A DNA stretch of 32,000 bases from Schaalia meyeri (GCF_900105015.1 NZ_FNLK01000008.1:30001-62000), one strand, 5' to 3'. Shown: positions 5,549 through 31,292, counted from the stretch's first letter. The notes: a model not told the origin generated them from the sequence alone. Translations and numbers: made by a program.

Positions 5549-5636
5549 TTAAATATGCTCAAAATATGTGCATATGCCCACTCGTATGTCATGATAATTA
5601 GGTCCAATGTCCCACACACCGACGCGCGGAGCATCA

Positions 5637-7307
5637 ATGACCCCCCTATTCGTAGCCCAAACCTTTACCCCGTCGACGACGGCCGTGGCAGGAAATGTCT
5701 TCCTGACCGCTGTCGTGGGCCTCCTCCCCCTCGCTGTCTTCTTCGTCCTCATGGGCGTGTTCAAGGTCGCGACCCACTGGTGTTCGATCATCGCGCTCGT
5801 ACTCTCCCTCGTCATCGCGATCTTCGCCTTCCAGATGCCGATAGGCATGGCACTCCTGGCGGGCACGCAGGGGGCGGCAATGGGCTTCATGCCGATCATC
5901 TACATCATCATCGCGGCCGTGTGGCTGTACAACCTGACCGAGAAATCGGGCCGCAGCGCCGACCTGAAGGCCGTGTTTAACACGATCGGGCGTGGCGACC
6001 AGCGCGCTCAGGCCCTGATCGTCGCCTTCTGCTTCTGCGGCCTTCTCGAGGGACTGGCTGGCTTCGGCGCTCCCGTTGCCATCACCTGCGCGATGCTCGT
6101 CACCCTGGGGGTGCCGAAGATCAAGGCCGCCGTCGTCACCGTCGTCGGCAACGCGATCAACGTCGGCTTCGGTGCCATGGCGATCCCCACGACGACAGCC
6201 GGTCGCCTGGGTGGCGCCGACGCAACGGCCGTGGCCGCCAACATGGGTCACCTGACCTGGATCTTCTGCCTCTTCATCCCCCTCCTCCTGCTCTTCATCC
6301 TGGACGGCGGCCGCGGCGTTCGTCAGCTCTGGCCCCTCGCCCTCGTCGCCGGTGCCGCCGCCGGCGTGGGCCACTTCGTGACCCCCTCCGTTTCCTACGA
6401 GCTGACCGCCGTCGTCGCCTCCCTCCTGGGATTTGCGGCCTGCTACGTGTTCCTGCTCGTGTGGAGCCCCACGACCCCCCAGGACTGTGCGACCAGCGCG
6501 GACGAGTCGGATAAGCCCTCCGGATCCCGCATCGCGCTGGCTCTCATGCCCTACGTCCTGGTCGTCGTGATCATCGCGATCACCAAGCTGTGGAGGATCG
6601 GCGTAAGCCTGCCTGATCTGCTGAAATCAACAGACCGCGACATCCCCTGGCCCGGCATTTACGGCTCCCTGCTGGGCGCCGACGGGCAGCCCTCAACCGC
6701 TGCGATCTACACGTTGCAGATCCTGTCCAACCCCGGCACGTGGATCTTCGTCACCGGCATCATCGTGGCGATCGTGTACGGATCGAACTCCTCGGGCGGA
6801 CGCTTCGCTACCTCCATTCCCCAGATGTTCGCGGTCCTGCCGCGCACCATCTACTCGCTGCGCATGGCGATCCTGACGATCGCCTCCGTCATGGCCCTGG
6901 CCTTCGTTATGAACCTGTCCGGGCAGACCACCTCCATCGGTGCCGCGCTGGCCACGACGGGGGCGGCATTCGCCTTCCTTTCCCCGATCCTGGGATGGAT
7001 CGGCACGGCAGTCGCCGGTTCCGCGACCTCAGCGGGCGCGCTCTTCGCGAACCTCCAGTCCACCGCGGCCACCGGGGCGGGCCTGGATCCGCGCATCCTT
7101 TTGGCCGCCAACACCATCGGCGGCGGCATCGGCAAGATCGTTTCCCCCCAGAACCTGGCGATCGCGGCGACTTCCGTGGACTCCGAGGGCTCGGACGCGG
7201 AGATCCTCAAGAAGGCCGCTCCCTACTCAATCGGCCTGCTCCTGGTCCTGTGCATCCTCGTGTTCGTCTCCTCGCAGGGCTGGCTCGGCGCGTACATGCC
7301 GGCCTGA
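5637..7307 (+). CDS. lctP: L-lactate permease (LctP family)
   Basis: A polytopic membrane protein of about 556 aa. The N-terminal region NVFLTAVVGLLPLAVFFVLMG and the motif GFMPIIYIIIAAVWLYNLTEKSGR match the LldP/LctP layout. ATG 5637 has GGAG at 5628-5631, and 5607 is an alternative start. Confidence 0.9.
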   Translation: MTPLFVAQTFTPSTTAVAGNVFLTAVVGLLPLAVFFVLMGVFKVATHWCSIIALVLSLVIAIFAFQMPIGMALLAGTQGAAMGFMPIIYIIIAAVWLYNLTEKSGRSADLKAVFNTIGRGDQRAQALIVAFCFCGLLEGLAGFGAPVAITCAMLVTLGVPKIKAAVVTVVGNAINVGFGAMAIPTTTAGRLGGADATAVAANMGHLTWIFCLFIPLLLLFILDGGRGVRQLWPLALVAGAAAGVGHFVTPSVSYELTAVVASLLGFAACYVFLLVWSPTTPQDCATSADESDKPSGSRIALALMPYVLVVVIIAITKLWRIGVSLPDLLKSTDRDIPWPGIYGSLLGADGQPSTAAIYTLQILSNPGTWIFVTGIIVAIVYGSNSSGGRFATSIPQMFAVLPRTIYSLRMAILTIASVMALAFVMNLSGQTTSIGAALATTGAAFAFLSPILGWIGTAVAGSATSAGALFANLQSTAATGAGLDPRILLAANTIGGGIGKIVSPQNLAIAATSVDSEGSDAEILKKAAPYSIGLLLVLCILVFVSSQGWLGAYMPA

Positions 7308-7388: not shown

Positions 7389-7670
7389 GTGGCAAACTTG
7401 CGTTTCTCGAGCGAAGAAATCAGGGCGGCGATTGACTGTCTGGGTCGCGGTGCAAGCATCGGATTTGGTCTATCCGATCCCCCAGCACAGCCCTGCTGCA
7501 ACACGTACATCGGCAGGCTTCACCGCCCTCTTGAAGAGCTCAACAAAGAGGAAGACCATGTGAGAAGCAACATCAGTGATGCTCGCCAGAACCTACGGAC
7601 AACCATCGAGATTTTCGAGGCCACCGAAGCCCAGATTTCTCAATCCCTCAGCAGTCTGCAGAAAAGCTAA
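7389..7670 (+). CDS. Small (93 aa) predicted helical protein; candidate secretion partner or chaperone for the downstream WXG/LXG-type toxin
   Basis: GTG 7389 lies 6 nt after a strong SD, GAAGGAG (7376-7382). The C-terminal half (EELNKEEDHVRSNISDARQNLRTTIEIFEATEAQISQSLSSLQ) is heptad-like and helical. The gene ends 8 nt before the toxin ATG. Its size and position mimic the small helper proteins upstream of LXG toxins. No family was recognised. Confidence 0.55.
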   Translation: MANLRFSSEEIRAAIDCLGRGASIGFGLSDPPAQPCCNTYIGRLHRPLEELNKEEDHVRSNISDARQNLRTTIEIFEATEAQISQSLSSLQKS

Positions 7671-7678
7671 AGTACATC

Positions 7679-8704
7679 ATGATCACCAGATCCCAACTCG
7701 AAGGGTTGGACGTCCTCGCGTTCGACCCACTGCTCCAACAGATCCGGATGTCCATCCAATCCAACAAAGACAAAATCTCCGATATCGAAAAAGCAACGTC
7801 ACACATCGTATCCGGGTGGGAAGGTGAGAGCAGCAATGCCGCACAGAGCAGGCTCTCTCACATCCAGGAGCAGACCCAGAAGCACATCGATGATCTCGAG
7901 GCGATGAAAAAGACCGTCACGACCTACGTCGAGGCAAAGAAATTACGGCAAGCCCACATCCTGGCGTTCATTGCGGAGCTTAAGACACTCCAGATGACTG
8001 TCACCGATGACTGGCAGGTTCGTCCAAATATTGCGCTGATGGCTGCCGCATCTGTCGGCGGGGCATTCATCCTAGCTGCACAGGTAACGAAACGTCTGCA
8101 TGCCCTCGTCAGGATGTTTGAGCAATACGAATACGAGGCACCCATCGCAGGAGTCAGCACCGCTCCCTCGTTCGTGTCCTCGTCAGGCTACTCAACCAGC
8201 CAACCCGACAGAACGATCAATTTCGACGACGATTTTCCATACGGCTCCAAGAAGGGAAAAGAGACGTTGGAGGACCGCGCTAACTGGGCAAAATGGGGGC
8301 TCAAGCTCGAGGGGGCGGAAGCAATCGGAGGCATGCCCGACGCATGCAAAATGTATCGTCATTTCCGAGAAGGAAAAGGAACCCCCATGCGTTTCGACTA
8401 CGACAAGGCGTACCGGGAAGATGCTGGCATTCGCAACTTTGTCAATGACGAACTGAATGGGTCTCTGCAGGCAGCCAACGAGGCCGTGAAATCGGGGAAC
8501 ACAAACGTCACCCTTCACTCGCCGATGCGCACGAACAGCGGCTACTACCCCGAGACGGAAAACTGGCAGAAGACTGTCGGCGGCTACAGCAGCTACACCG
8601 AAACGAATGTCCAGGTCTCGGGAGACACAGTCACCGCCACGGTCACGGTTCACGCCAAAGACAAGTGGAACTTCAACTACGTCTCCATGTGCATTGGAGC
8701 GTGA
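7679..8704 (+). CDS. WXG100/LXG-superfamily polymorphic toxin candidate (341 aa): N-terminal WXG helical hairpin, central hydrophobic segment, C-terminal domain of unknown family
   Basis: W47-E48-G49 (nt 7817-7825) sits in SGWEGESSNAAQ at the position expected for a WXG100 hairpin turn, between two helical stretches of about 40 aa. IALMAAASVGGAFILAAQV (aa 118-136) is hydrophobic. An S/T/P linker follows, then a domain of about 165 aa (aa 178-341). The stop overlaps the start of the next gene (GTGA at 8701-8704). Confidence 0.65.
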   Translation: MITRSQLEGLDVLAFDPLLQQIRMSIQSNKDKISDIEKATSHIVSGWEGESSNAAQSRLSHIQEQTQKHIDDLEAMKKTVTTYVEAKKLRQAHILAFIAELKTLQMTVTDDWQVRPNIALMAAASVGGAFILAAQVTKRLHALVRMFEQYEYEAPIAGVSTAPSFVSSSGYSTSQPDRTINFDDDFPYGSKKGKETLEDRANWAKWGLKLEGAEAIGGMPDACKMYRHFREGKGTPMRFDYDKAYREDAGIRNFVNDELNGSLQAANEAVKSGNTNVTLHSPMRTNSGYYPETENWQKTVGGYSSYTETNVQVSGDTVTATVTVHAKDKWNFNYVSMCIGA

Positions 8705-9261
8705 CCTTGAAACTTTCCCTCCGCATTCTTGCCCCGTTGGTCGTCGTCGTGGCGCTCACCGCATGCAGCCCCTTTGCACCTAGGAACCCTCGGGTGCAGC
8801 TCCCCCACGACCCGCGCTTCACAAAATTCACGTCAAAGACCGAGGGCGACCCAAAGCTCGGCGACCAGCTGGATTCCTTCAATGAACGTATGCCCGCTCT
8901 CGGGGCAACCGAGGGCCATTTCGCAGCAGGTTTGATTCCCACCGGTTGGAGTCTCTTGCCCACCCCGGATCGGCAGCACTGGTACACCGGGGTTGCCACA
9001 GTCCCCGACGAGACGATCAAGAGACTCCAGGCCGGTGCGAGCGGTGACGCGAAGACACTGCCCGGAATTTACCCTGAGCTCTACCAGTACGTGCCTCAGG
9101 ACTGTCATTTCCCAACCATTCCATCGGACCATGCGAACAAGGTCCTTGAAACCAACAAGACAAGCATGAACAGCAAGTATGGTTCCCTCACAATCAAGGA
9201 GTTCGCCGCCTCGATGGACTGTCACCTGGTCCTGGTAGTCGGCGAGATCAGGCGCGGCTAG
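8701..9261 (+). CDS. Lipoprotein, candidate immunity protein (paralog 1)
   Basis: Signal peptide with lipobox L-T-A-C (VTLKLSLRILAPLVVVVALTAC). GTG 8701 overlaps the toxin stop. TTG 8707 (MKLSLRIL...) is an alternative start with GGAG (8696-8699) 7 nt upstream. The mature region is 54% identical to paralog 2 (89/165 positions, gapless hand alignment). Confidence 0.65.
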   Translation: MTLKLSLRILAPLVVVVALTACSPFAPRNPRVQLPHDPRFTKFTSKTEGDPKLGDQLDSFNERMPALGATEGHFAAGLIPTGWSLLPTPDRQHWYTGVATVPDETIKRLQAGASGDAKTLPGIYPELYQYVPQDCHFPTIPSDHANKVLETNKTSMNSKYGSLTIKEFAASMDCHLVLVVGEIRRG

Positions 9262-9310
9262 GAGGGCTTGTTTCTGTCCATCAGCGATGGTTCTCTTACG
9301 TAAGGTAGGC

Positions 9311-9868
9311 ATGAAACTCTTATTTCGCACTCTCGTACCGTTGGTCATCGTCGCGGCGCTGAGCGCGGCTTGCTACCCTTTTGTGCCAAGAAAACCCAAG
9401 GTGCATCTCCCCCACGACCCGCGCTTCGCCGAGTTCACGTATGAGACCGATGACGAGCTGAAGGTACAGGAGCGCATCGATTCATTTAACGAGCGTATGC
9501 CCGAACTGGGAGCGACCGAAGGACACGTCGTCGTAGCCCATTTCCGGGATGGCGCATCCTGGCAGCCGACGCCCGACCGCCAATTCTGGCTGACCGGCGT
9601 CGCCACAGTCCCCGATACGACGATCGCTATGCTCGTCGACGACAACATCGGCGAATCCTCGTTGCTGCCCGGCATCCACCCCGACCTCTACCAGTACGTG
9701 CCCGAGGAATGCTCTTTCACGACCGTTGACCCCGACGTCGCCAACAAGGTCCTCGATACCGCTCGTAACGAGTTTTATTCGGAATGGGGCTCGTTCGAGA
9801 TCCGCGAGTTCGTGTTCTCTGCCGACTGTAACCTCATCCTTGTCACCGGCGATGGCCTCCAGGGCTAG
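9311..9868 (+). CDS. Lipoprotein, candidate immunity protein (paralog 2)
   Basis: Signal peptide MKLLFRTLVPLVIVAALSAAC, with a lipobox-like ...AAC. Shared motifs with paralog 1 are LPHDPRF, DSFNERMP-LGATEGH, TPDRQ-W-TGVATVPD, LPGI-P-LYQYVP and ANKVL. ATG 9311 is preferred over the track's 9287. Confidence 0.65.
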   Translation: MKLLFRTLVPLVIVAALSAACYPFVPRKPKVHLPHDPRFAEFTYETDDELKVQERIDSFNERMPELGATEGHVVVAHFRDGASWQPTPDRQFWLTGVATVPDTTIAMLVDDNIGESSLLPGIHPDLYQYVPEECSFTTVDPDVANKVLDTARNEFYSEWGSFEIREFVFSADCNLILVTGDGLQG

Positions 9869-10462
9869 CACACCGACCTTAACGACACATATTAAGCTCC
9901 CACTCAAGATTCTCGCTCCAACTCTCGCAGTTATCGCTCTGGTCTCCGCGTGCCTCCCGTCCTCCTCCGGGCGTTCGTCCAGCCACAACACCAAACCCGC
10001 TGCATCGAAGATAGATCCCCGATTCGCTGAGTTTCAACACACCTTCAAGAAAAACCGGAGATTCAAGAAATGGTTGACATTCTCAACGAGCATTGGTCAG
10101 ACCTGGAGGCGACGGAGACTCACCTCACCCTCGCGTACTCTCGCACTGGCTTCTGTGACGTCAACATCGAACCCGAATTTTGGATGACTGGCGTCCCGAC
10201 CATTTCCGATGAAGCAATCGAGATGCTCAGCGTCAAGACAGACAATACGAATACCCTCCAGCCCGGCATCTATCCGGGCCTCTACCAATACGTGCCCCAG
10301 GACTGCCACTTCTCCATGATCCCCGCCGACCACGCCAATGAGACCCTCGAGACGAAGACGACCAAGTCTTCCTCTCCCTTCGGCTCGTTCAAGGTCCAGG
10401 AGCTCGCCGTTTCCGCGGACTGCCACCTCGTCGTCGTGACGGGAGAGGGAGTGATGGGATAG
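9852..10462 (+). pseudogene. Lipoprotein, candidate immunity paralog 3, disrupted by a 1-nt frameshift near the A5 run at 10050-10054
   Basis: The N-terminal part (lipobox V-S-A-C, then IDPRFAEFQHTF) is in frame 0, within track ORF 9726..10187. The C-terminal part (EKPEIQEMVDILNEHWSDLEATETH...LQPGIYPGLYQYVPQDCHF...SADCHLVVVTGEGVMG) is in frame 2. Frame 2 has a stop at 10028-10030, so the switch must fall between 10031 and about 10055. The codon homologous to the paralog start codons is ATT (9891-9893). The only upstream ATG (9852) lacks an SD. Confidence 0.6.
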
Positions 10463-10487
10463 CAACTCACCCACAATCCCCGGCCCG

Positions 10488-10509
10488 GGCCTCGTCCATT
10501 GTCGAGGCC
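10488..10509 (+). terminator. Short hairpin after the third lipoprotein gene
   Basis: GGCCTCG (10488-10494) pairs with CGAGGCC (10503-10509) across an 8-nt loop. There is no T-tract. Confidence 0.3.
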
Positions 10510-10760
10510 GAGGTGCCAGTGCGCTCACTCGCGACCATCGCAAAAATGAAAAACGAAAACTCACCCTGAGCTAAGTCGCCTTCCATGCGCCTCATTTCTT
10601 TCGGATACAAGGGATTTTTCGACGATGATTTTTCTTTAGTTTTCCGCGAGAATTCGCCGCTCACGCGCCATCCTCCACACAGCGGACACGAGAATACACC
10701 CCGGGACCTCCGACCTAGTCATAACCTGAGACTGACAGCACCTACGAGGAAGGATCCCCC

Positions 10761-11558
10761 GTGCGCATCGCTCTCTTTTCCACCTGCCTAGCAGACGTCA
10801 TGTTCCCCCAGGCGGCCCAGGCGACAGTGACCCTGCTCGAACGCCTCGGCCATGAGGTCGTCTTCCCCGAAGGCCAGGTCTGCTGCGGCCAGATGCACGC
10901 CAACACCGGCTATTTTGAAGACGCAGCGAAGATCACCCGTAACCACGTCAAGGCCTTCGAGCCCGTCCTGGACGGACTATGGGACGCCATCGTCGTTCCC
11001 TCCGGCTCCTGCACCGGCGCAGCACGCCACGAACAGAAGGTCGTCGCCGAACACGTTGGAGACACAGAGCTGGCCAAGCAGTCCCAGCGCATCGCCCAGC
11101 ACACCTACGACCTCACCGAACTCCTCACCGACGTCCTGGGCCTGGAAGACGTGGGCGCATACTTCCCCCACACCGTCACCTACCACCCGACCTGCCACTC
11201 CCTGCGCATCGCCAGGGTCGGCGACCGCCCCTACCGCCTGCTGCGCCAGGTCGAAGGACTGACCCTCATCGACCTGCCGGACGCCGAGGTCTGCTGCGGA
11301 TTCGGCGGCACCTTCTCCATGAAGAACTCCGAAACTTCCACGTCGATGCTGGCCGACAAAGTCGCCAACGTCATGTCCACGCGCGCAGAGGTCCTGGTCA
11401 TGGGCGACTACTCCTGCCTCCTGCACGTCGGCGGCGGCCTCTCCCGCCTCAACTCCGGTATCCGCCCCATACACCTCGCCGAAATCCTGGCATCCACCAA
11501 GGACCAGCCCTTCCAGGGCAACATCTCCTTCGCACCCGAAAGCGCACAGGTGATCTGA
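10761..11558 (+). CDS. lutA: Lactate utilization protein A (Fe-S oxidoreductase, CCG-domain)
   Basis: N-terminus RIALFSTCLADVMFPQAAQATVTLLERLGHEVVFPEGQVCCGQMH, and a second CCG motif (EVCCGFGGTF). The start is GTG 10761, with GAGGAAGGA at 10746-10754. Confidence 0.9.
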   Translation: MRIALFSTCLADVMFPQAAQATVTLLERLGHEVVFPEGQVCCGQMHANTGYFEDAAKITRNHVKAFEPVLDGLWDAIVVPSGSCTGAARHEQKVVAEHVGDTELAKQSQRIAQHTYDLTELLTDVLGLEDVGAYFPHTVTYHPTCHSLRIARVGDRPYRLLRQVEGLTLIDLPDAEVCCGFGGTFSMKNSETSTSMLADKVANVMSTRAEVLVMGDYSCLLHVGGGLSRLNSGIRPIHLAEILASTKDQPFQGNISFAPESAQVI

Positions 11559-11559
11559 C

Positions 11560-13164
11560 ATGACCGCAACGTTCATCGGAATGCCCTCCACCCCCGAATC
11601 CCACACCGGCGGCTGGCGCACCACCGTCACCATCCCCGAAGACACCCTCCGCTGGGGCCACACCTTCCCCGAGGGCGCACACAAGACACTGGCCAACACC
11701 CAGATGCGCCGTAACCTCGGCCACGCCACCCGCACCATCCGCACCAAGCGCGGGCAGCGCGTCGCCGAAATGCCGGACTGGGAGGACCTGCGCAGCGCCG
11801 CCGAGGCCGTCAAATTCGAAGTCGAATCGCGCATGCCCGAGCTGCTCGAAGAGTTCGAGCGCAACGTCACCGCTCGCGGCGGCATCGTCCACTGGGCGCG
11901 CGACAAGCACGAGGCCAACCGCATCGTCGCGGACATCATCAAGTCCAAGGGCGTCGACGAGGTCGTCAAGATCAAGTCCATGGCCACCCAGGAAACCAAC
12001 CTCAACGAGTACCTGAAGGGTCAGGGGATCTCCGCGCTGGAAACCGACCTGGCCGAGATGATCGTCCAGCTGGCCGACGACATGCCCAGCCACATCGTGG
12101 TCCCCGCGATCCACCGCAACCGCTCCGAAGTGCGCGGCATCTTCCTGGATCGCATGGAGGACGCGCCGCGCGATCTCTCGGATGACCCGACCGAGCTCAC
12201 GGGCGCCGCCCGCGCCCACCTGCGCAAAAAGTTCCTGCACGCCAAGGTCGCCGTCTCCGGCACCAACATGGGCATCGCGGAAACCGGCACCGTCTCCGTC
12301 TACGAATCCGAGGGCAACGGTCGCATGTGCCTGACCCTGCCGGACACGCTCATCACCCTGATGGGCATCGAGAAGCTGGTGCCCCGCTTCCAGGACATCG
12401 AGATCTTTTCCCAGCTGCTGCCCCGTTCCGCGACCGGCGAGCGCATGAACCCCTACACTTCCCTGTGGACGGGCGTCACCCCCGGCGATGGCCCCCAGGA
12501 GTTCCACCTGATCCTCATGGACAACGGGCGCACCAAGGTACTCGCGGACCCCATCGGACGACAGGCCCTCGCCTGTATTCGCTGCGGCTCCTGCATGAAC
12601 ATCTGCCCCGTCTACCAGCACACATCCGGTCACGCCTACGGCTCTGTCTACCCCGGGCCCATCGGTGCGATCCTCACCCCGCAGCTCACCCAGGGCCTGG
12701 GCGAGAAGGATCCTGTGCACACCCTCCCCTTCGCCTCCTCTCTGTGCGGTGCGTGCGGCGAGGTTTGCCCCGTCAAGATCGACATCCCCACGATCCTCAT
12801 CCATATGCGCGCGCGCACGGTGGACATCAAGCGCAACATCGTGCCCGATGTGTGGGACCTGGCGATGGGCGTTGCCACCCCCGTCATGTCGAACGCGACG
12901 CTGTGGAAGGCCGCAGGCATGTCCACCAAGACCACCCGCCTGTTCGCCAAGAAGGGGGCGATCGGCGCGCTGCCGTTCCCGGCTTCGCTGTGGACCCGCG
13001 CGCGCGACCTGCCGGTGGTGCCCAAGGAAACATTCCGGCAGTGGTGGAAGCGCACCCACGCGGACTCCGACGCAAACGCGCCCCGCACGGACACCCCCGC
13101 CACGGGGCTCCCGCTCGCATCCGAGCATGGCATGACCACCCGCACGACCCCCGAGGAGGCGTGA
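11560..13164 (+). CDS. lutB: Lactate utilization protein B (4Fe-4S ferredoxin-type plus LUD domain)
   Basis: Two ferredoxin cluster motifs, CIRCGSCMNICPVY and CGACGEVCPVKIDIP. The ATG lies 1 nt after the lutA stop. Confidence 0.9.
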   Translation: MTATFIGMPSTPESHTGGWRTTVTIPEDTLRWGHTFPEGAHKTLANTQMRRNLGHATRTIRTKRGQRVAEMPDWEDLRSAAEAVKFEVESRMPELLEEFERNVTARGGIVHWARDKHEANRIVADIIKSKGVDEVVKIKSMATQETNLNEYLKGQGISALETDLAEMIVQLADDMPSHIVVPAIHRNRSEVRGIFLDRMEDAPRDLSDDPTELTGAARAHLRKKFLHAKVAVSGTNMGIAETGTVSVYESEGNGRMCLTLPDTLITLMGIEKLVPRFQDIEIFSQLLPRSATGERMNPYTSLWTGVTPGDGPQEFHLILMDNGRTKVLADPIGRQALACIRCGSCMNICPVYQHTSGHAYGSVYPGPIGAILTPQLTQGLGEKDPVHTLPFASSLCGACGEVCPVKIDIPTILIHMRARTVDIKRNIVPDVWDLAMGVATPVMSNATLWKAAGMSTKTTRLFAKKGAIGALPFPASLWTRARDLPVVPKETFRQWWKRTHADSDANAPRTDTPATGLPLASEHGMTTRTTPEEA

Positions 13165-13165
13165 C

Positions 13166-13840
13166 ATGAGCAAGACCACGATGGACGCAAAGACCGCGAT
13201 CCTGGCGCGCGCACGCGACGCCATCTCCCATTCACAGCAGGGACGCCCCGTGCGACCGATCCCTCGCGACTACATCCGCTCCACCGAGCACGCGCCCGGT
13301 TCGGACGCCGTCGTTGAGGAAATGATCGAGAAACTCGAGGACTACTCCGCGCAGGTTGTCGTCGTTTCGGGAGAGGATGCCGTCGCCGACGCCGTCGCCA
13401 CGTTCCTGGCCGATCAGAAGGCCACCTCGGTCGTCGTTCCCACCGGCCTGGACGAGGCCTTCAAGAAGGCGGCCGCCCGCGACGGGCGCAAGGTGAGCGA
13501 AGACAGCCGCGAGAAGGCCATCTCCACCCTGGAGCTGGACGAGATCGACGCGGTCGTCACCCGCAGCCGCGTCGCCATCTCCATCTCGGGAACCATCGTC
13601 CTGGACGGCGAACCCGACCAGGGGCGTCGCGCAATCTCCCTCGTGCCCGACACGCACGTCGTCGTCCTAAACCGCGCGGACATCGTTCCCACGGTCCCCC
13701 AGGCGGTCGACATCCTCGGCAAGAACCCGACCCGTCCCATGACGTGGATCGCCGGCGGTTCGGCGACCTCCGACATTGAGCTCGTGCGAGTCAACGGCGT
13801 GCACGGCCCCCGCAACCTGCGGGTCGTCATCGCCTCCTGA
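13166..13840 (+). CDS. lutC: Lactate utilization protein C (LUD-domain)
   Basis: A 224-aa protein that starts 1 nt after the lutB stop. Its position and size fit LutC/YkgG, and the C-terminal ...GGSATSDIE...GVHGPR pattern is typical of the LUD domain. Confidence 0.85.
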   Translation: MSKTTMDAKTAILARARDAISHSQQGRPVRPIPRDYIRSTEHAPGSDAVVEEMIEKLEDYSAQVVVVSGEDAVADAVATFLADQKATSVVVPTGLDEAFKKAAARDGRKVSEDSREKAISTLELDEIDAVVTRSRVAISISGTIVLDGEPDQGRRAISLVPDTHVVVLNRADIVPTVPQAVDILGKNPTRPMTWIAGGSATSDIELVRVNGVHGPRNLRVVIAS

Positions 13841-28205: not shown

Positions 28206-28475
28206 ATGCCATCATCCATTTACGTGAGCTTCGACGCACCCGAAGGGGTTCCGGCAACGCCGCGTCGGCTGCACGCCGCCCTGTCGTCCGTGCTGGACCT
28301 GCCGCCGGGGGTGAGCCCTAAGCGCGCGGCCCGGTTCCCGACGCTGGCTCACCGCCCACCGCACGGGTCCGGCTCTGCGAAACCCTATTCGCTGGGTGAA
28401 GTGTGCCTGTCGGATTCGACGTTCGGCGTCGAGATGCGTTTCCTGTTCGCGCACGTGAACTCAGCCCGGCGGTGA
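28206..28475 (+). CDS. Short ORF (89 aa) with a good SD; possibly the 5' remnant of a Cas6-like (RAMP) gene
   Basis: GGGAGG (28195-28200) lies 5 nt before ATG 28206. The pattern LHAALSSVLD...H...KPYSLGEV resembles the N-terminal LH-x-h...H...(K/N)P(F/Y)S motif of Cas6 endoribonucleases, but the ORF is about one third of Cas6 length. This is a weak call from memory. Confidence 0.3.
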   Translation: MPSSIYVSFDAPEGVPATPRRLHAALSSVLDLPPGVSPKRAARFPTLAHRPPHGSGSAKPYSLGEVCLSDSTFGVEMRFLFAHVNSARR

Positions 28476-28493: not shown

Positions 28494-28617
28494 GCACTCG
28501 TGGATAGGAAATGGCTTCGCGGATAGGTTATGCGTTCATGGATAGGTTATGCACTCGTGGATAGGAACCTAAGCTATCCAGATGGCCGTAACCTATCCAC
28601 GTAGCAACAACCTATCC
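28494..28617. repeat. Iteron-like array of seven GGATAGG/CCTATCC sites at an exact 19-bp period, four direct then three inverted, with dyad symmetry about position 28569
   Basis: GGATAGG occurs at 28502, 28521, 28540 and 28559. GCTATCC occurs at 28573, and CCTATCC at 28592 and 28611. The extended consensus is GGATAGGTTA. The 17-mer GCACTCGTGGATAGGAA is repeated at 28494 and 28551, which is 3 x 19 bp apart. Confidence 0.85.
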
Positions 28618-28733
28618 AGGAAGTGGCCTCGCGCAAACACGCACAATCCGCCAGGGGCCGCGCAACAAACCCACAAGTACGCGCACGACAAACCGACAAA
28701 TGCGCGCGGCACACCAGGCTCATGCCTGCGACT

Positions 28734-28781
28734 CCCCAAAACAAAGCGGGCCTCCTCGGGGAAAGCCCCGGGGAGACCCGC
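28734..28781 (-). terminator. Intrinsic terminator of the minus-strand membrane-protein gene
   Basis: A 16-bp stem (28746-28761 with 28766-28781; one mismatch, one G-U) closes a 4-nt loop. On the minus strand it is followed by TTTGTTTTGGGG (28745-34). It starts 6 nt after the stop codon. Confidence 0.7.
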
Positions 28782-28786
28782 CACCC

Positions 28787-30079
28787 TCACTCGCCGCCGC
28801 CCACCGGCACGCGCTTGGAGGGGTGGCGTCGGTCCTCGCCCCGCCACCACGGCATCCACGCGGCGTAACCATCCGCGGGGGGCGTCGGCGCATCCGGCTG
28901 GAAGCCGAGATCGGCCGGGGTCTCGGGGATACGGTCAACCAGGAAGTACTTGTCCCTGTCGTCGCAGTGTTCGCGCACAATCGTGCGGAACTCCTTCAGC
29001 TCACAGTACAGGACGCCGGTGATCGGGTTCCTCTTCCACGCAACGATCTTGTACACCCAATAGACGAAGAGGGCGACGTTGGCCGCGAGCGCGAGGACCG
29101 CGCACGCGATGTTCGCACGCGGATCCATCGTGGCAAAGTTGAAGATGTCCGAGGGCGGAACCAGCACCTCCGGCAGCAGGGTGTTCATCGAGATCCAAAA
29201 GACCAGCGTGAAACAGCGGAACCAGATCCACTGGCCCTTCGCCCACGTGAATGCCGGGATCGTGCAGGCCAGCAGCAGCGCCAGCGTGCAATACCAGGTG
29301 TAGTCGGCCAGCGAATTGTAGAGGAACGCGTGATTCCACAGGTCGTAGGCGATGACCCACGGCCACACCATGTCCACCCAGATCAGTCCGCGCACCTTCT
29401 GCTTGCCCGGTGAGGTCACGATGATTTTGCCGAGCCCCGTGATCGTGATGATGTTGAGCAGGCCAGCCGCCGCCGACAAGAGGTTCCAGACCCCGCCGAT
29501 CGTGCGGAACCCGGTCTCCGGGTCGATGCCGACGTGCCGGGCAGACAGGTTGGCGGCAACCTCCTGATACCACTGCTGCGAATGGAGCTCGGCAGTGACG
29601 CCCCGCGCCTCGGGCAACCCCGCGATCATGTCGATCGTGTGGGAGTCATTGACGGACTTCAGGCACTGCCAGTCGGCACCGCACGCATAATAGGAGTCGG
29701 CGTTGAAGTAGATCGTCAAGTCACGGATATTGGCTTCCATGATATTGACAGCCAATCCGATCCACAGGGCAACACCCAGCCAAATCGCGTACTTATGAGC
29801 CTTGACGGGATTGCGTTTGGCATAGAGCAGGACAGTTCCAGTCATGGTAGCCGTCAAAATCATGATCGCGTACTTGCCAAACGGAAACCAGCCCACCATG
29901 GGCGTCCCGTGGATCCACGCGTAGGGCATCAGCGCGATGCCGCCGACCGTCCAGACGGCAAAGATCGTCCAGTTCCACCGCCGGTTGATCTCGGCGACGA
30001 TGATCTGAGCGGCCAGGACAGCGAACCAGATGACATAGACCTTTGGGGTTCCAATCTCCCAGAGGAAGAGAGTCTCCAC
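28787..30079 (-). CDS. Polytopic membrane protein of unknown function (430 aa), paralog A
   Basis: About 9-10 hydrophobic helices. It shares the block VWPWVIAYDLWNHAFLYNSLADYTWYCTLALLLACTIPAF with the gene starting at 31292. It also has a Cys-containing loop insert of about 50 aa and a Trp/Pro-rich cytoplasmic tail. Confidence 0.8.
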   Translation of the reverse strand: METLFLWEIGTPKVYVIWFAVLAAQIIVAEINRRWNWTIFAVWTVGGIALMPYAWIHGTPMVGWFPFGKYAIMILTATMTGTVLLYAKRNPVKAHKYAIWLGVALWIGLAVNIMEANIRDLTIYFNADSYYACGADWQCLKSVNDSHTIDMIAGLPEARGVTAELHSQQWYQEVAANLSARHVGIDPETGFRTIGGVWNLLSAAAGLLNIITITGLGKIIVTSPGKQKVRGLIWVDMVWPWVIAYDLWNHAFLYNSLADYTWYCTLALLLACTIPAFTWAKGQWIWFRCFTLVFWISMNTLLPEVLVPPSDIFNFATMDPRANIACAVLALAANVALFVYWVYKIVAWKRNPITGVLYCELKEFRTIVREHCDDRDKYFLVDRIPETPADLGFQPDAPTPPADGYAAWMPWWRGEDRRHPSKRVPVGGGE

Positions 30080-30251
30080 AGCATTCTCCTTCGAAACTGC
30101 AACTGAGCTTATGGTTGTCGGCTATCATAGTGCCTTAATCAACCCAATGTACGAGGTCCGCCACGGAATCCGGGTCACGCCCGGGACGCTCTGCCCGACG
30201 ACCCACATCTGCATCAAGCAGGCCTCGCCTGATCCTCAAGGAGGAGGACTC

Positions 30252-31292
30252 ATGACACGACACTCACGCATGCGCTCGCTATGCCGCATCAGCCTGGCGG
30301 GAACGGCCGCACTCCTGGGTGGCATGTACGCGTTCAGCCAGCTCACCGGGAAAGCGACGCCGGAAGAACAGGCCTGGCGCTATCCGGGAGACGATCTCAT
30401 CGACGCCAACTATGACAACGGCTACTCCTCGACCTACGCCATCACCATTGACGCCCCCGCCTATGCGGTATGGAGGCTCTTTAAACAGATCGGAGCGGAA
30501 AAATCCGGGTCGTTCTCCTCGGAGTTCCTGGAAAGGACCTTCGCTCGTCTCCCCTTCTTCAACTCCTACGAGATACAGGAGGAGTTCCAGCAGCCTGATT
30601 CCATGAAGCCCGGCGACATTGCTGCTTTCGACTTCCACGGGATGTCCATGGAGTGGGCTGACATCGTGCCCGGCAAGTACCTGGTTCAGTGGGTCGACAC
30701 GAAGAACCCGCCGAAGGCTCCCGGGTCCTACGCTTTCCGTTTCCCGGGTATGCGGCATTTCGCGGCGGCCTGGTGCTTCTATATGGTGCCGCTGGCCGGA
30801 GGCCGCACTCGCCTCATCAACCACTGGCGTATCGGCTACGAGCCGCCCAGCGCGGCAATGACCGCGCTCAATTGGGTCAACATCGAGTTCATCGGCGGGT
30901 GTATGACGCACCTGCAGAATCTCTACGTGAAACGCGTCCTGGAGTTTAAGAAGAAGCAGCACCTGACAGGTCGCGTTATGCGCGGCATGCTCGGCGGGCG
31001 GTTCTTCGCCAGCCCCACCCCGGCCGGCCGACACGACGGCACGCCCCTTTTTGAGGACACCTTCACCCAGTGGTTCCGTTATGGGCGCTCAGCCCCGGCT
31101 GTCGCTGAAATACGCCCGCCCGTCACCGACGATCCATCGTGGCCGCCGACGGGTCCGGGCACCCCGTGGGAAAGCGAGGTTGATTCCTCCTACTTCGAGG
31201 GCTGGAGCGAACCGGCATTTTCTTGGGATGAGCAGATACGCCAAAAGATGGAGCGCACCTATCTGCCCGATTGGGGTAAGGAACAACGCTGA
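30252..31292 (+). CDS. Membrane-anchored SRPBCC (START/polyketide-cyclase-like) ligand-binding-fold protein with a Trp-rich acidic tail
   Basis: ATG 30252 follows AAGGAGGAGGA. N-terminal anchor LCRISLAGTAALLGGMYAF. SRPBCC-type opening strand and helix YAITIDAPAYAVWRLFKQIG. The C-terminal 90 aa are rich in W, P, D and E. The stop overlaps the next gene's ATG (TGATG at 31290-31294). Confidence 0.65.
   Translation: MTRHSRMRSLCRISLAGTAALLGGMYAFSQLTGKATPEEQAWRYPGDDLIDANYDNGYSSTYAITIDAPAYAVWRLFKQIGAEKSGSFSSEFLERTFARLPFFNSYEIQEEFQQPDSMKPGDIAAFDFHGMSMEWADIVPGKYLVQWVDTKNPPKAPGSYAFRFPGMRHFAAAWCFYMVPLAGGRTRLINHWRIGYEPPSAAMTALNWVNIEFIGGCMTHLQNLYVKRVLEFKKKQHLTGRVMRGMLGGRFFASPTPAGRHDGTPLFEDTFTQWFRYGRSAPAVAEIRPPVTDDPSWPPTGPGTPWESEVDSSYFEGWSEPAFSWDEQIRQKMERTYLPDWGKEQR

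Follow-up and report, generated by a model that had tools for sequence, protein, structure and literature searches.

What is an array of GGATAGG sites doing in a non-coding part of the chromosome of Schaalia meyeri? It occupies positions 28,494 to 28,617 of a 32,000-nucleotide stretch of this genome (GCF_900105015.1, NZ_FNLK01000008.1:30001-62000), which we call the window and number from its first letter. A preliminary description, made from the sequence alone, proposed plasmid or phage iterons, a ParR/ParB-type centromere, or a cooperative repressor operator. One part of this proposal fits best with what we found, namely a cooperative array of protein-recognition sites, but the part that made it the iterons, centromere, or neighbour operator of a single locus does not. 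The array is one copy of a family of intergenic repeats dispersed in the chromosomes of S. meyeri and its oral relatives, located preferentially at the 3' ends of genes, and whose core motifs are conserved in place.

The array and the positions of its seven sites are real. An exact search gives GGATAGG at 28502, 28521, 28540, and 28559 on the plus strand and at 28592 and 28611 on the minus strand. The remaining site, at 28573, reads GCTATCC, one mismatch away from CCTATCC, so only six of the seven are perfect. Seven exact heptamers occur in the whole window, six of them within the 116 bp of the array, and dinucleotide shuffles have on average 2.12 heptamers per 32 kb and never reach seven. A scan of the window with the 15-mer consensus reveals no array-like stretch besides 28494-28621. 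The 19-bp period thought to separate all neighbouring sites holds within each arm, but one of the six steps, the one that crosses the dyad (28559 to 28573), measures 14 bp, and a 7-bp spacer separates the two inner 7-bp cores there. The three inner pairs (centres 28562/28576, 28543/28595, and 28524/28614) are all mirrored about 28569, as claimed. Equally accurate were the 17-mer GCACTCGTGGATAGGAA recurring 57 bp apart (at 28494 and 28551) and the low GC content (49% in 28494-28617, 65% in the window). The extended unit is less uniform than described: GGATAGGTTA is exact in two direct units only, to which TAACCTATCC at 28589 can be added, and the remaining units read GGATAGGAAA, GGATAGGAAC, GGATAGGTTG, or GGATAGCTTA. 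The coordinates of all features are given in Table 1.

Table 1. Features of the GGATAGG array and of its immediate surroundings (positions in the window).
Feature	Position	Strand	Basis or remark
Whole array, 4 direct + 3 inverted 19-bp units	28495..28621		Likeness to 100+ other loci limited to ~28495-28620
Part matching the canonical 3+3 element (~105 bp)	28517..28621		Most BLAST matches to other copies span 28518-28619
D1, extra direct unit, core 28502-28508; its 17-mer recurs in D4	28498..28512	+	Exact search
D2, direct unit, core 28521-28527, TCGCGGATAGGTTAT	28517..28531	+	Exact search, consensus scan
D3, direct unit, core 28540-28546, TCATGGATAGGTTAT	28536..28550	+	Exact search, consensus scan
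D4, direct unit, core 28559-28565, left inner site of dyad	28555..28565	+	Exact search
7-bp centre AACCTAA (family consensus TTAATAA), dyad axis 28569	28566..28572		Sequence, family alignment
I1, inverted unit, core GCTATCC 28573-28579	28573..28583	-	Family alignment
I2, inverted unit, core CCTATCC 28592-28598	28588..28602	-	Exact search, consensus scan
I3, inverted unit, core CCTATCC 28611-28617	28607..28621	-	Exact search, consensus scan
89-codon cas6 remnant (5' third), outside the element	28206..28475	+	Clusters with 266-aa Cas6 of other S. meyeri strains
Terminator-like hairpin of DUF5692 gene (28787-30079, minus)	28748..28768	-	~125 bp from the array

We scanned one genome per species, 596 Gb in all, for the dyad pattern GGATAGG-N7-SCTATCC-N12-CCTATCC, of which well below one match is expected by chance in such an amount of sequence. 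The pattern is present in at least 118 chromosomal stretches of 28 species-level assemblies, with up to 11 strict copies per genome among the matches listed; it requires three perfect cores and the dyad, so degenerate copies are under-sampled and the copy numbers are lower bounds. In S. meyeri itself, one array was seen in ~52 kb of sequence. Almost all array-bearing assemblies (27 out of 28) are titled or behave as Actinomyces, Schaalia, or Pauljensenia, and nearly all of these belong to the odontolytica group. The records titled Sanguibacter keddieii 250_SKED (JVOJ; loci L035, L038, L048, L055, and L067 of our set) and Xylanimonas cellulosilytica 352_XCEL (JVKM; L075, L098, L117, L122, L138, and L145) contain many arrays in gene contexts common to Schaalia and Pauljensenia, suggesting that they are mislabelled. 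The copies are unlikely to be artefacts of assembly or contamination because they sit in different conserved gene contexts. The preliminary description had advised looking for relatives in plasmids and phages, but there are none in 50,697 phage and 72,556 plasmid records. It had also regarded a dispersed repeat of a known mobile-element end as incompatible with its own view: the repeat is indeed dispersed, yet it matches no known mobile element. In the searchable literature we found no description of the motif or of repeats in Actinomyces or Schaalia, nor any interspersed repeat reported for oral Actinomycetaceae, and the family is apparently undescribed so far.

The typical anatomy of the element is simple. 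The canonical form, of ~105 bp, has three head-to-tail units facing three inverted ones across an AT-rich 7-bp centre. This 3+3 form is the mode (72 of 141 arrays); the number of units varies in 19-bp steps, with 15 arrays in the 4+3 form of the window and extremes up to 2+8. The consensus unit is A-T-S-Y-GGATAGG-T-T-A-T-(G)-A-N-S, where the part ATNNGGATAGG is invariant and usually followed by TTAT. The consensus of the centre is GGATAGG-TTAATAA-GCTATCC, which gives a dyad ATNNGGATAGG-TTAATAA-CCTATCCNNAT of geometry 11-7-11 with a well-conserved middle. The imperfect inner site of the window copy is a trait of the whole family: the right inner core differs from CCTATCC, and lacks the corresponding G-C pair, in 53 of the 71 aligned 3+3 copies, the consensus being GCTATCC. 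The consensus element ends in 5'-(A)TGC...GCA(T)-3', and the information content of the family alignment drops to zero directly beyond the outer units. The 935-bp intergenic region of the window likewise resembles all other loci only in 28495-28620. There are two subfamilies, YGCGGATAGGTTAT and TCTGGATAGGAAAC (GC-GGATAGG-TTAT and CT-GGATAGG-AAAC), which have spacer features in common and coexist at separate loci of one genome. Three heptamers at a 19-bp period are also found in five high-GC contigs of IMG/VR, where three to four direct copies of GGATAGGTTA are followed by TAAGCTATCC and then by two copies of AACCTATCC. An unrelated phage contig (L027, 948-1040) has five direct 19-bp repeats, GGATAGGGGCCTCCCAGCA, directly upstream of a gene; these are iteron- or operator-like and have only the heptamer and the period in common with the GGATAGG family.

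The cores are the most constrained part of these loci. Among 39 orthologous pairs from different species, mismatches affect 0-2.9% of the core positions, 16% of the spacers, and ~40% of the ungapped flanks. The outermost cores, which are unselected by the search pattern, show 2.9% mismatch at orthologous positions. A gapped alignment of the flanks, made for 20 pairs of 3+3 arrays, gives 1.3% for cores, 12.5% for spacers, and 20.5% for flanks. Outer cores are distributed bimodally, with perfect copies in 109 and 106 of 137 arrays, absence in the others, and rare intermediates. A similar picture emerges within the species, where 21 S. meyeri sequences have a single variable column in the 126-bp array, within the already imperfect GCTATCC, against 6.5 and 8.4 variable columns per 100 bp in the adjoining non-coding DNA.

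The arrays are strictly intergenic: none of the 141 overlaps a called gene, the calls at array loci being made with a crude heuristic based on GC content at third codon positions. Convergent junctions and gene 3' ends are over-represented among their sites, and junctions between divergent genes are under-represented. Among the 92 arrays with called genes on both sides, the neighbours are convergent in 37, tandem in 47, and divergent in 8, compared with 106:364:91 for all intergenic gaps of the same loci. Clustering of the flanking genes gives 118 clusters and 135 Pfam families with at most two members each, and these genes encode, among others, tRNA synthetases, ribosomal proteins, GyrB, ferrochelatase, and transporters. 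The 105 neighbour families are unrelated and none is enriched; in particular, there is no enrichment of par or transposase families. With respect to transcription, neither orientation of the asymmetric centre is preferred (20 co-directional, 15 opposite). We also observed that array-bearing intergenic regions are prone to rearrangement between species (L031/L068/L087 and L043/L024), with extra segments made of an array plus its flank, an inverted flank segment, and recombination at the start of paralogous methyltransferase genes. Another dispersed repeat, of ~60-140 bp and containing CTGAAGTTCAGATCATGAAATACTCGACGGGGAATTGCATGCGAAATTGCGGC, is present at 14 loci or more, often 130-250 bp from the centre of a GGATAGG array (e.g., L031 3115-3253 and 5104-5243; also L034, L076, L068, L145, L143, and L044). 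It has no Rfam match and is not found in the window; the Rfam search of L031 returned only chance matches of miRNA type (E ≥ 0.05).

On balance, we lean towards a reading in which the element is a clade-restricted interspersed intergenic repeat of S. meyeri and the odontolytica group of Schaalia and Pauljensenia, akin to the miniature inverted-repeat type of transposable element (MITE), and is kept as a cooperative docking platform for a protein acting in trans. We infer from the conserved units that a sequence-specific protein, encoded elsewhere, docks on them in duplex DNA. Each unit would offer an asymmetric 11-bp site, ATNNGGATAGG, of a length that suits a single DNA-binding domain or a bipartite monomer, and an element would hold about six protomers. 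The inner two would sit head-to-head over the 11-7-11 dyad, arranged as in a recombinase core or a head-to-head dimer, and the outer ones would be added head-to-tail every 19 bp. This step corresponds to ~1.8 helical turns, which would make one protomer after another wind around the helix. The family may have spread in an ancestor by copy-and-paste, as MITEs do, since its subfamily structure and dispersal point to past multiplication as a unit. The copies would now be retained for the effect of the bound complex, because their cores are conserved in place. Candidate roles include that of a barrier, transcriptional or topological, between convergent units, the structuring of the nucleoid, and that of a recombinase- or transposase-derived platform for synapsis or recombination.

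A hairpin could in principle produce part of this pattern. If the element were of the REP/ERIC/BOX kind, its transcribed stem-loop would terminate transcription or protect the 3' end of mRNA, or a REP-type transposase would read the folded single-stranded DNA. The window array does fold strongly on either strand (-56 to -59 kcal/mol, z = -6.4 to -7.5 relative to shuffles), which is expected of any palindrome, the arrays favour gene 3' ends, paired cells are slightly in excess (75.7% vs 74.4% in shuffles, equalled by 2 of 500 shuffles), and changes on both sides occur at the positions flanking the cores. Yet a stem requires complementarity, not a fixed sequence, and the 12 core pairs are invariant and show no covariation, with fewer pairs changed on both sides (24) than in shuffles (28.7). 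The complementarity between the spacers of the two arms is no higher within a copy (0.549) than with another copy of the same genome (0.548) or of a different genome (0.542), and some mirrored positions are systematically non-complementary (0.07 observed vs 0.33 expected). Nor does a hairpin need the strict 19-bp direct period or the perfect cores found in units without a partner, in arrays such as 2+8 (L098), 6+1, or 4+3. In this strain, a single gene reads toward the window copy, and its terminator precedes the array. The family has no Rfam match, its helices are not supported by covariation, and its units are not individually palindromic and lack GTAG/CGTC heads. We find a hairpin element quite improbable. 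The invariance of the cores, the lack of general compensation in the spacers, and the perfection of partnerless units instead favour sequence-specific recognition of each unit on duplex DNA, with which a secondary effect of the hairpin would be compatible. A selfish MITE without host function, in which the units are transposase sites and two transposon ends fused back to back are mobilised in trans, agrees with other traits. The element is short (~105 bp), non-coding, intergenic, palindromic with inverted arms, present in at least 118 copies, and enriched at convergent gene ends; it has subfamilies inside one genome and ends, (A)TGC...GCA(T), compatible with TG/CA termini. By analogy, its period and arm layout may recall the arrayed transposase sites of known elements: the 19-mers of Tn5090/Tn402, the 22-mers of Tn7 (three on the left and four on the right), and the sites L1-3 and R1-3 of Mu. 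Against it, a comparison of all boundary offsets outside the element in 67 copies of the 3+3 form revealed no duplicated k-mer of 3-9 bp, hence no target-site duplication at the tested boundaries, and the 118 loci, retrieved with a pattern that required the dyad, revealed neither solo arms or half-arrays flanking cargo nor an autonomous element. Of 184 pairs of copies from the same genome, a single one reaches 90% identity in the spacers, and there were therefore no recent bursts. Six cases of presence/absence are segmental indels of 180-670 bp, duplications, or paralogue recombinations, all hard to align, and never concern the element alone. Candidates for precise insertion at L138/L093, L043/L024, L031/L087/L068, and L128/L145 proved to be larger segmental indels or paralogue recombination. 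The DUF5692 relatives of the window locus (L147-L150, 80-84% DNA identity over the gene) have no array there and their intergenic DNA is unalignable; in L148 this region is 166 bp long and lacks the array, and a clean insertion boundary could not be defined. No transposase family is enriched among the neighbours. Finally, different species retain copies at orthologous sites, where the conservation of the cores exceeds that of the flanks at least 7-fold, a pattern not expected from the neutral decay of dead copies. This makes a purely selfish element unlikely.

Dispersed recombination sites, perhaps attachment sites, have the right geometry: the inner 11-7-11 would provide the core at which a tyrosine or serine recombinase makes its crossover, with the outer units as accessory sites. 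The dyad ATNNGGATAGG-TTAATAA-CCTATCCNNAT has a well-conserved spacer, and array-bearing intergenic regions are rearranged between species. In all seven array-bearing IMG/VR contigs, the array is near the contig end or the start of chromosomal homology (e.g., L025 4270-4480, L026 9547-10190, L161 4821-5550, and L021 11209-11325; four species have no array at the site of L025), and three of the seven have a gene for a tyrosine recombinase of 265-273 aa at 1.5-2.2 kb. If phages lack arrays, though, an array on a proviral contig must lie in the host flank, and its position at the junction is probably an effect of contig selection. No viral contig has arrays at both ends. The small phage recombinases, which we considered as binders, were discarded: they are found on three viral contigs only, share just 38% identity with each other, and do not occur at chromosomal array loci. 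Within a copy, both arms are mostly of the same subfamily, so that exchange between copies at the centre is at most rare, and the end point of a deletion in S. meyeri lies 49 bp outside the array, not at its centre. Geometry is thus the one defining trait of such sites that we could recognise, and we judge this explanation very unlikely. The functions put forward initially are those of a local array, and tandem 19-bp units with a dyad do resemble iterons, centromeres, operators, and clusters of DnaA boxes. The family nonetheless occupies at least 118 dispersed chromosomal sites in unrelated contexts and has no relative in phage or plasmid records. Iterons would adjoin an initiator gene at a single origin locus, and here there are at least 118 loci in 28 genomes and no such gene linked to them; a centromere finds no par genes near the window copy or enriched among the 105 neighbour families. 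As for an operator, the window copy is downstream of both flanking transcription units, and the family has 8 divergent versus 37 convergent settings among 92. Three units do read CCTATCCAC (28592 on the plus strand, 28500 and 28557 on the minus strand), but the likeness to the DnaA box of Escherichia coli (TTATCCACA; TTGTCCACA in actinobacteria) noted in the preliminary description is weak. The bases equivalent to the critical CACA end are the variable ones, positions 7-9 of the box being R (A 34%), S (C 44%), and A (82%), and the conservation in the unit logo (A T S Y G G A T A G G T T A T) extends into TAACC, outside the box. The window contains era, ybeY, and phoH-type genes and is not a dnaA region. 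A function restricted to one locus is hardly credible. Two further candidates were rejected: TAGGTTA is similar to a half-site of the DtxR/IdeR box, but the spacing of half-sites is off by 2 bp and a dyad could form only at the centre; and DNA-uptake sequences do not fit because the cores are never single, with one stray heptamer in the window.

Some observations weigh against the docking platform that we favour. No target-site duplication, autonomous parent, or clean insertion polymorphism of ~105 bp was found, and past mobility is therefore deduced solely from dispersal and subfamilies. No binding protein is linked to the arrays among the neighbouring genes. The covariation score is 0.152, above all 500 shuffles (0.133), which relatedness alone can cause. 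Arm-to-arm symmetry is also raised within a copy at the two positions next to each core (0.73 vs 0.56), a signal that tracks the two subfamilies. Gene conversion among copies, or repair templated by the palindrome, could account for part of the conservation. We consider it possible, though doubtful, that these chromosomes hold dozens of six-site platforms, with accessory units placed head-to-tail around an 11-7-11 dyad, for a dedicated protein, possibly derived from a transposase or recombinase, maintained by purifying selection as domesticated barriers between convergent transcription units or as organisers of the nucleoid or of recombination; no counterpart of such an architecture has been described.

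[quoted passage not shown] The truncated open reading frame noticed upstream is the cas6 remnant of Table 1, which cannot be the partner of the array since it is absent from other array loci. Homology to S. meyeri CP012072, whose cas6 is intact (266 aa), is lost at 28445|28446 and found again from 49 bp before the array. This junction, which has no microhomology, corresponds to a deletion of 15,238 bp relative to CP012072, which took away the remainder of cas6 together with a type III cas operon, cas2, a Cas1 of 592 aa, and a CRISPR array of 35 repeats. In CP012072, the order is S8 peptidase, intact cas6, type III cas operon, cas2 and cas1, CRISPR array, 4+3 array, and the terminator and gene of DUF5692. 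The CRISPR array, with a 37-nt repeat and a period of ~74 bp, ends ~75 bp upstream of the GGATAGG array, from which it differs in kind: the latter has a 19-bp period, cores of 7-11 bp, and inverted arms. The array predates the deletion and was not produced by it, because the CRISPR-positive CP012072 has the same 4+3 array. In CRISPR-positive strains, the array lies between two convergent transcription units. A comparison of L152, L155, and L160 showed an intermediate form in contig L160, which kept the cas genes and has a single degenerate repeat.

The surroundings of the window copy are chromosomal, with era, ybeY, a phoH-type gene, and genes for a UvrA-like ATPase, an oxidoreductase, an S8 peptidase with choline-binding repeats, and DUF5692 membrane proteins. 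The terminator described downstream exists and belongs to the DUF5692 gene, the only one that reads toward the array. The absence of a partner gene nearby was also correctly noted: there are no rep or par genes within ~10 kb upstream and ~11 kb downstream, and no transposase or repressor gene near the copy. No tRNA was found in the window, nor any Rfam family at the gathering score. Searches of all neighbours with Pfam and NCBIfam, made for a possible binder, gave nothing DNA-binding save for a weak PadR-like hint (E = 0.17). This hint concerns an N-terminal winged helix similar to PadR/Rv3488 in a conserved protein without Pfam family, encoded at 30111-31292 (346-aa form from 30252) between two DUF5692 genes; the three-gene cassette is conserved in relatives that lack the array. 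Elsewhere in the window, a low-GC island at 7600-10700 (52-59% vs 65%), located between a lactate permease gene (5607-7307) and lutABC-like genes (10761-13840), encodes a 341-aa protein (7679-8704) with a weakly WXG100-like N-terminus and several small open reading frames without family. Such gene content may correspond to a cassette for a type VII-secreted toxin and its immunity protein.

The repeat is unusually simple, six copies of one site, and well conserved in place, which makes it a convenient bait for the binding protein and a starting point for studying the role of a domesticated repeat. Annotators should not call such arrays origins or centromeres. The family can serve as a marker of the S. 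meyeri/odontolytica group in metagenomes, and its arrays flag hypervariable intergenic regions in the genomes of Schaalia and Pauljensenia.

How does the element compare with known systems? It is an interspersed repeat outside any named family, because it lacks defining traits of MITEs (target-site duplication, precise polymorphism), of REPs (palindromic unit, GTAG/CGTC), and of iterons, centromeres, operators, and DnaA clusters. With ParR-parC, the 20-bp repeats of ParR in pSK41, the omega heptads, and the 3+4 iterons of TubR-tubC, it has in common close direct and inverted sites on which many protomers would form one complex. Those are single plasmid loci that adjoin par or regulatory genes and overlap promoters, whereas the GGATAGG repeat is chromosomal, dispersed, distal to promoters, and unlinked to such genes. 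The internal recombination site (IRS) of Tn4430 (IR1-IR2 plus DR1-DR2), the integron attI1, and FRT also have an inverted inner pair with a spacer of 6-8 bp and direct copies of the same motif over ~100-120 bp. They are single-copy, adjoin the recombinase gene, and have accessory repeats on one side only, unlike the GGATAGG element, which is symmetric, present in dozens of dispersed copies, and without a linked recombinase. The ends of Tn402, Tn7, and Mu are similar in having three to four asymmetric, monomer-type sites of 19-22 bp placed head-to-tail in each arm, with mutually inverted arms. Here, in contrast, the arms abut with nothing between them, there is no transposase gene, 5-bp duplication, or conserved extra terminal sequence, and the copies are old and fixed at orthologous sites. 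In anatomy, the element comes closest to such ends, as if fused back to back, and to the recombinase sites with accessory repeats of the same motif. In behaviour, the closest resemblance is with Correia, ERIC, RUP, BOX, and REP/BIME, which are also non-coding, imperfectly palindromic repeats of ~100 bp, clade-specific, numbering tens of copies in a genome, confined to intergenic DNA, and with a preference for gene 3' ends and convergent junctions; BOX and BIME share, in addition, a variable number of internal tandem modules. REP/BIME, Correia, and BOX repeats affect transcription termination, mRNA stability, supercoiling, and genome rearrangement. Relative to REP and REPIN, the 19-bp unit is asymmetric, does not form a hairpin, and lacks GTAG/CGTC, so that it is not a REP, and no partner insertion sequence or REP-associated tyrosine transposase was seen at array loci, unlike for REP/BIME. 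The GGATAGG element differs from Correia, ERIC, RUP, BOX, and REP in lacking a separate terminal inverted repeat and a target-site duplication, and in being built from one 19-bp unit, arranged 3+3, with an invariant asymmetric core of 11 bp. What distinguishes it from interspersed repeats in general is that these cores are strongly conserved in place.

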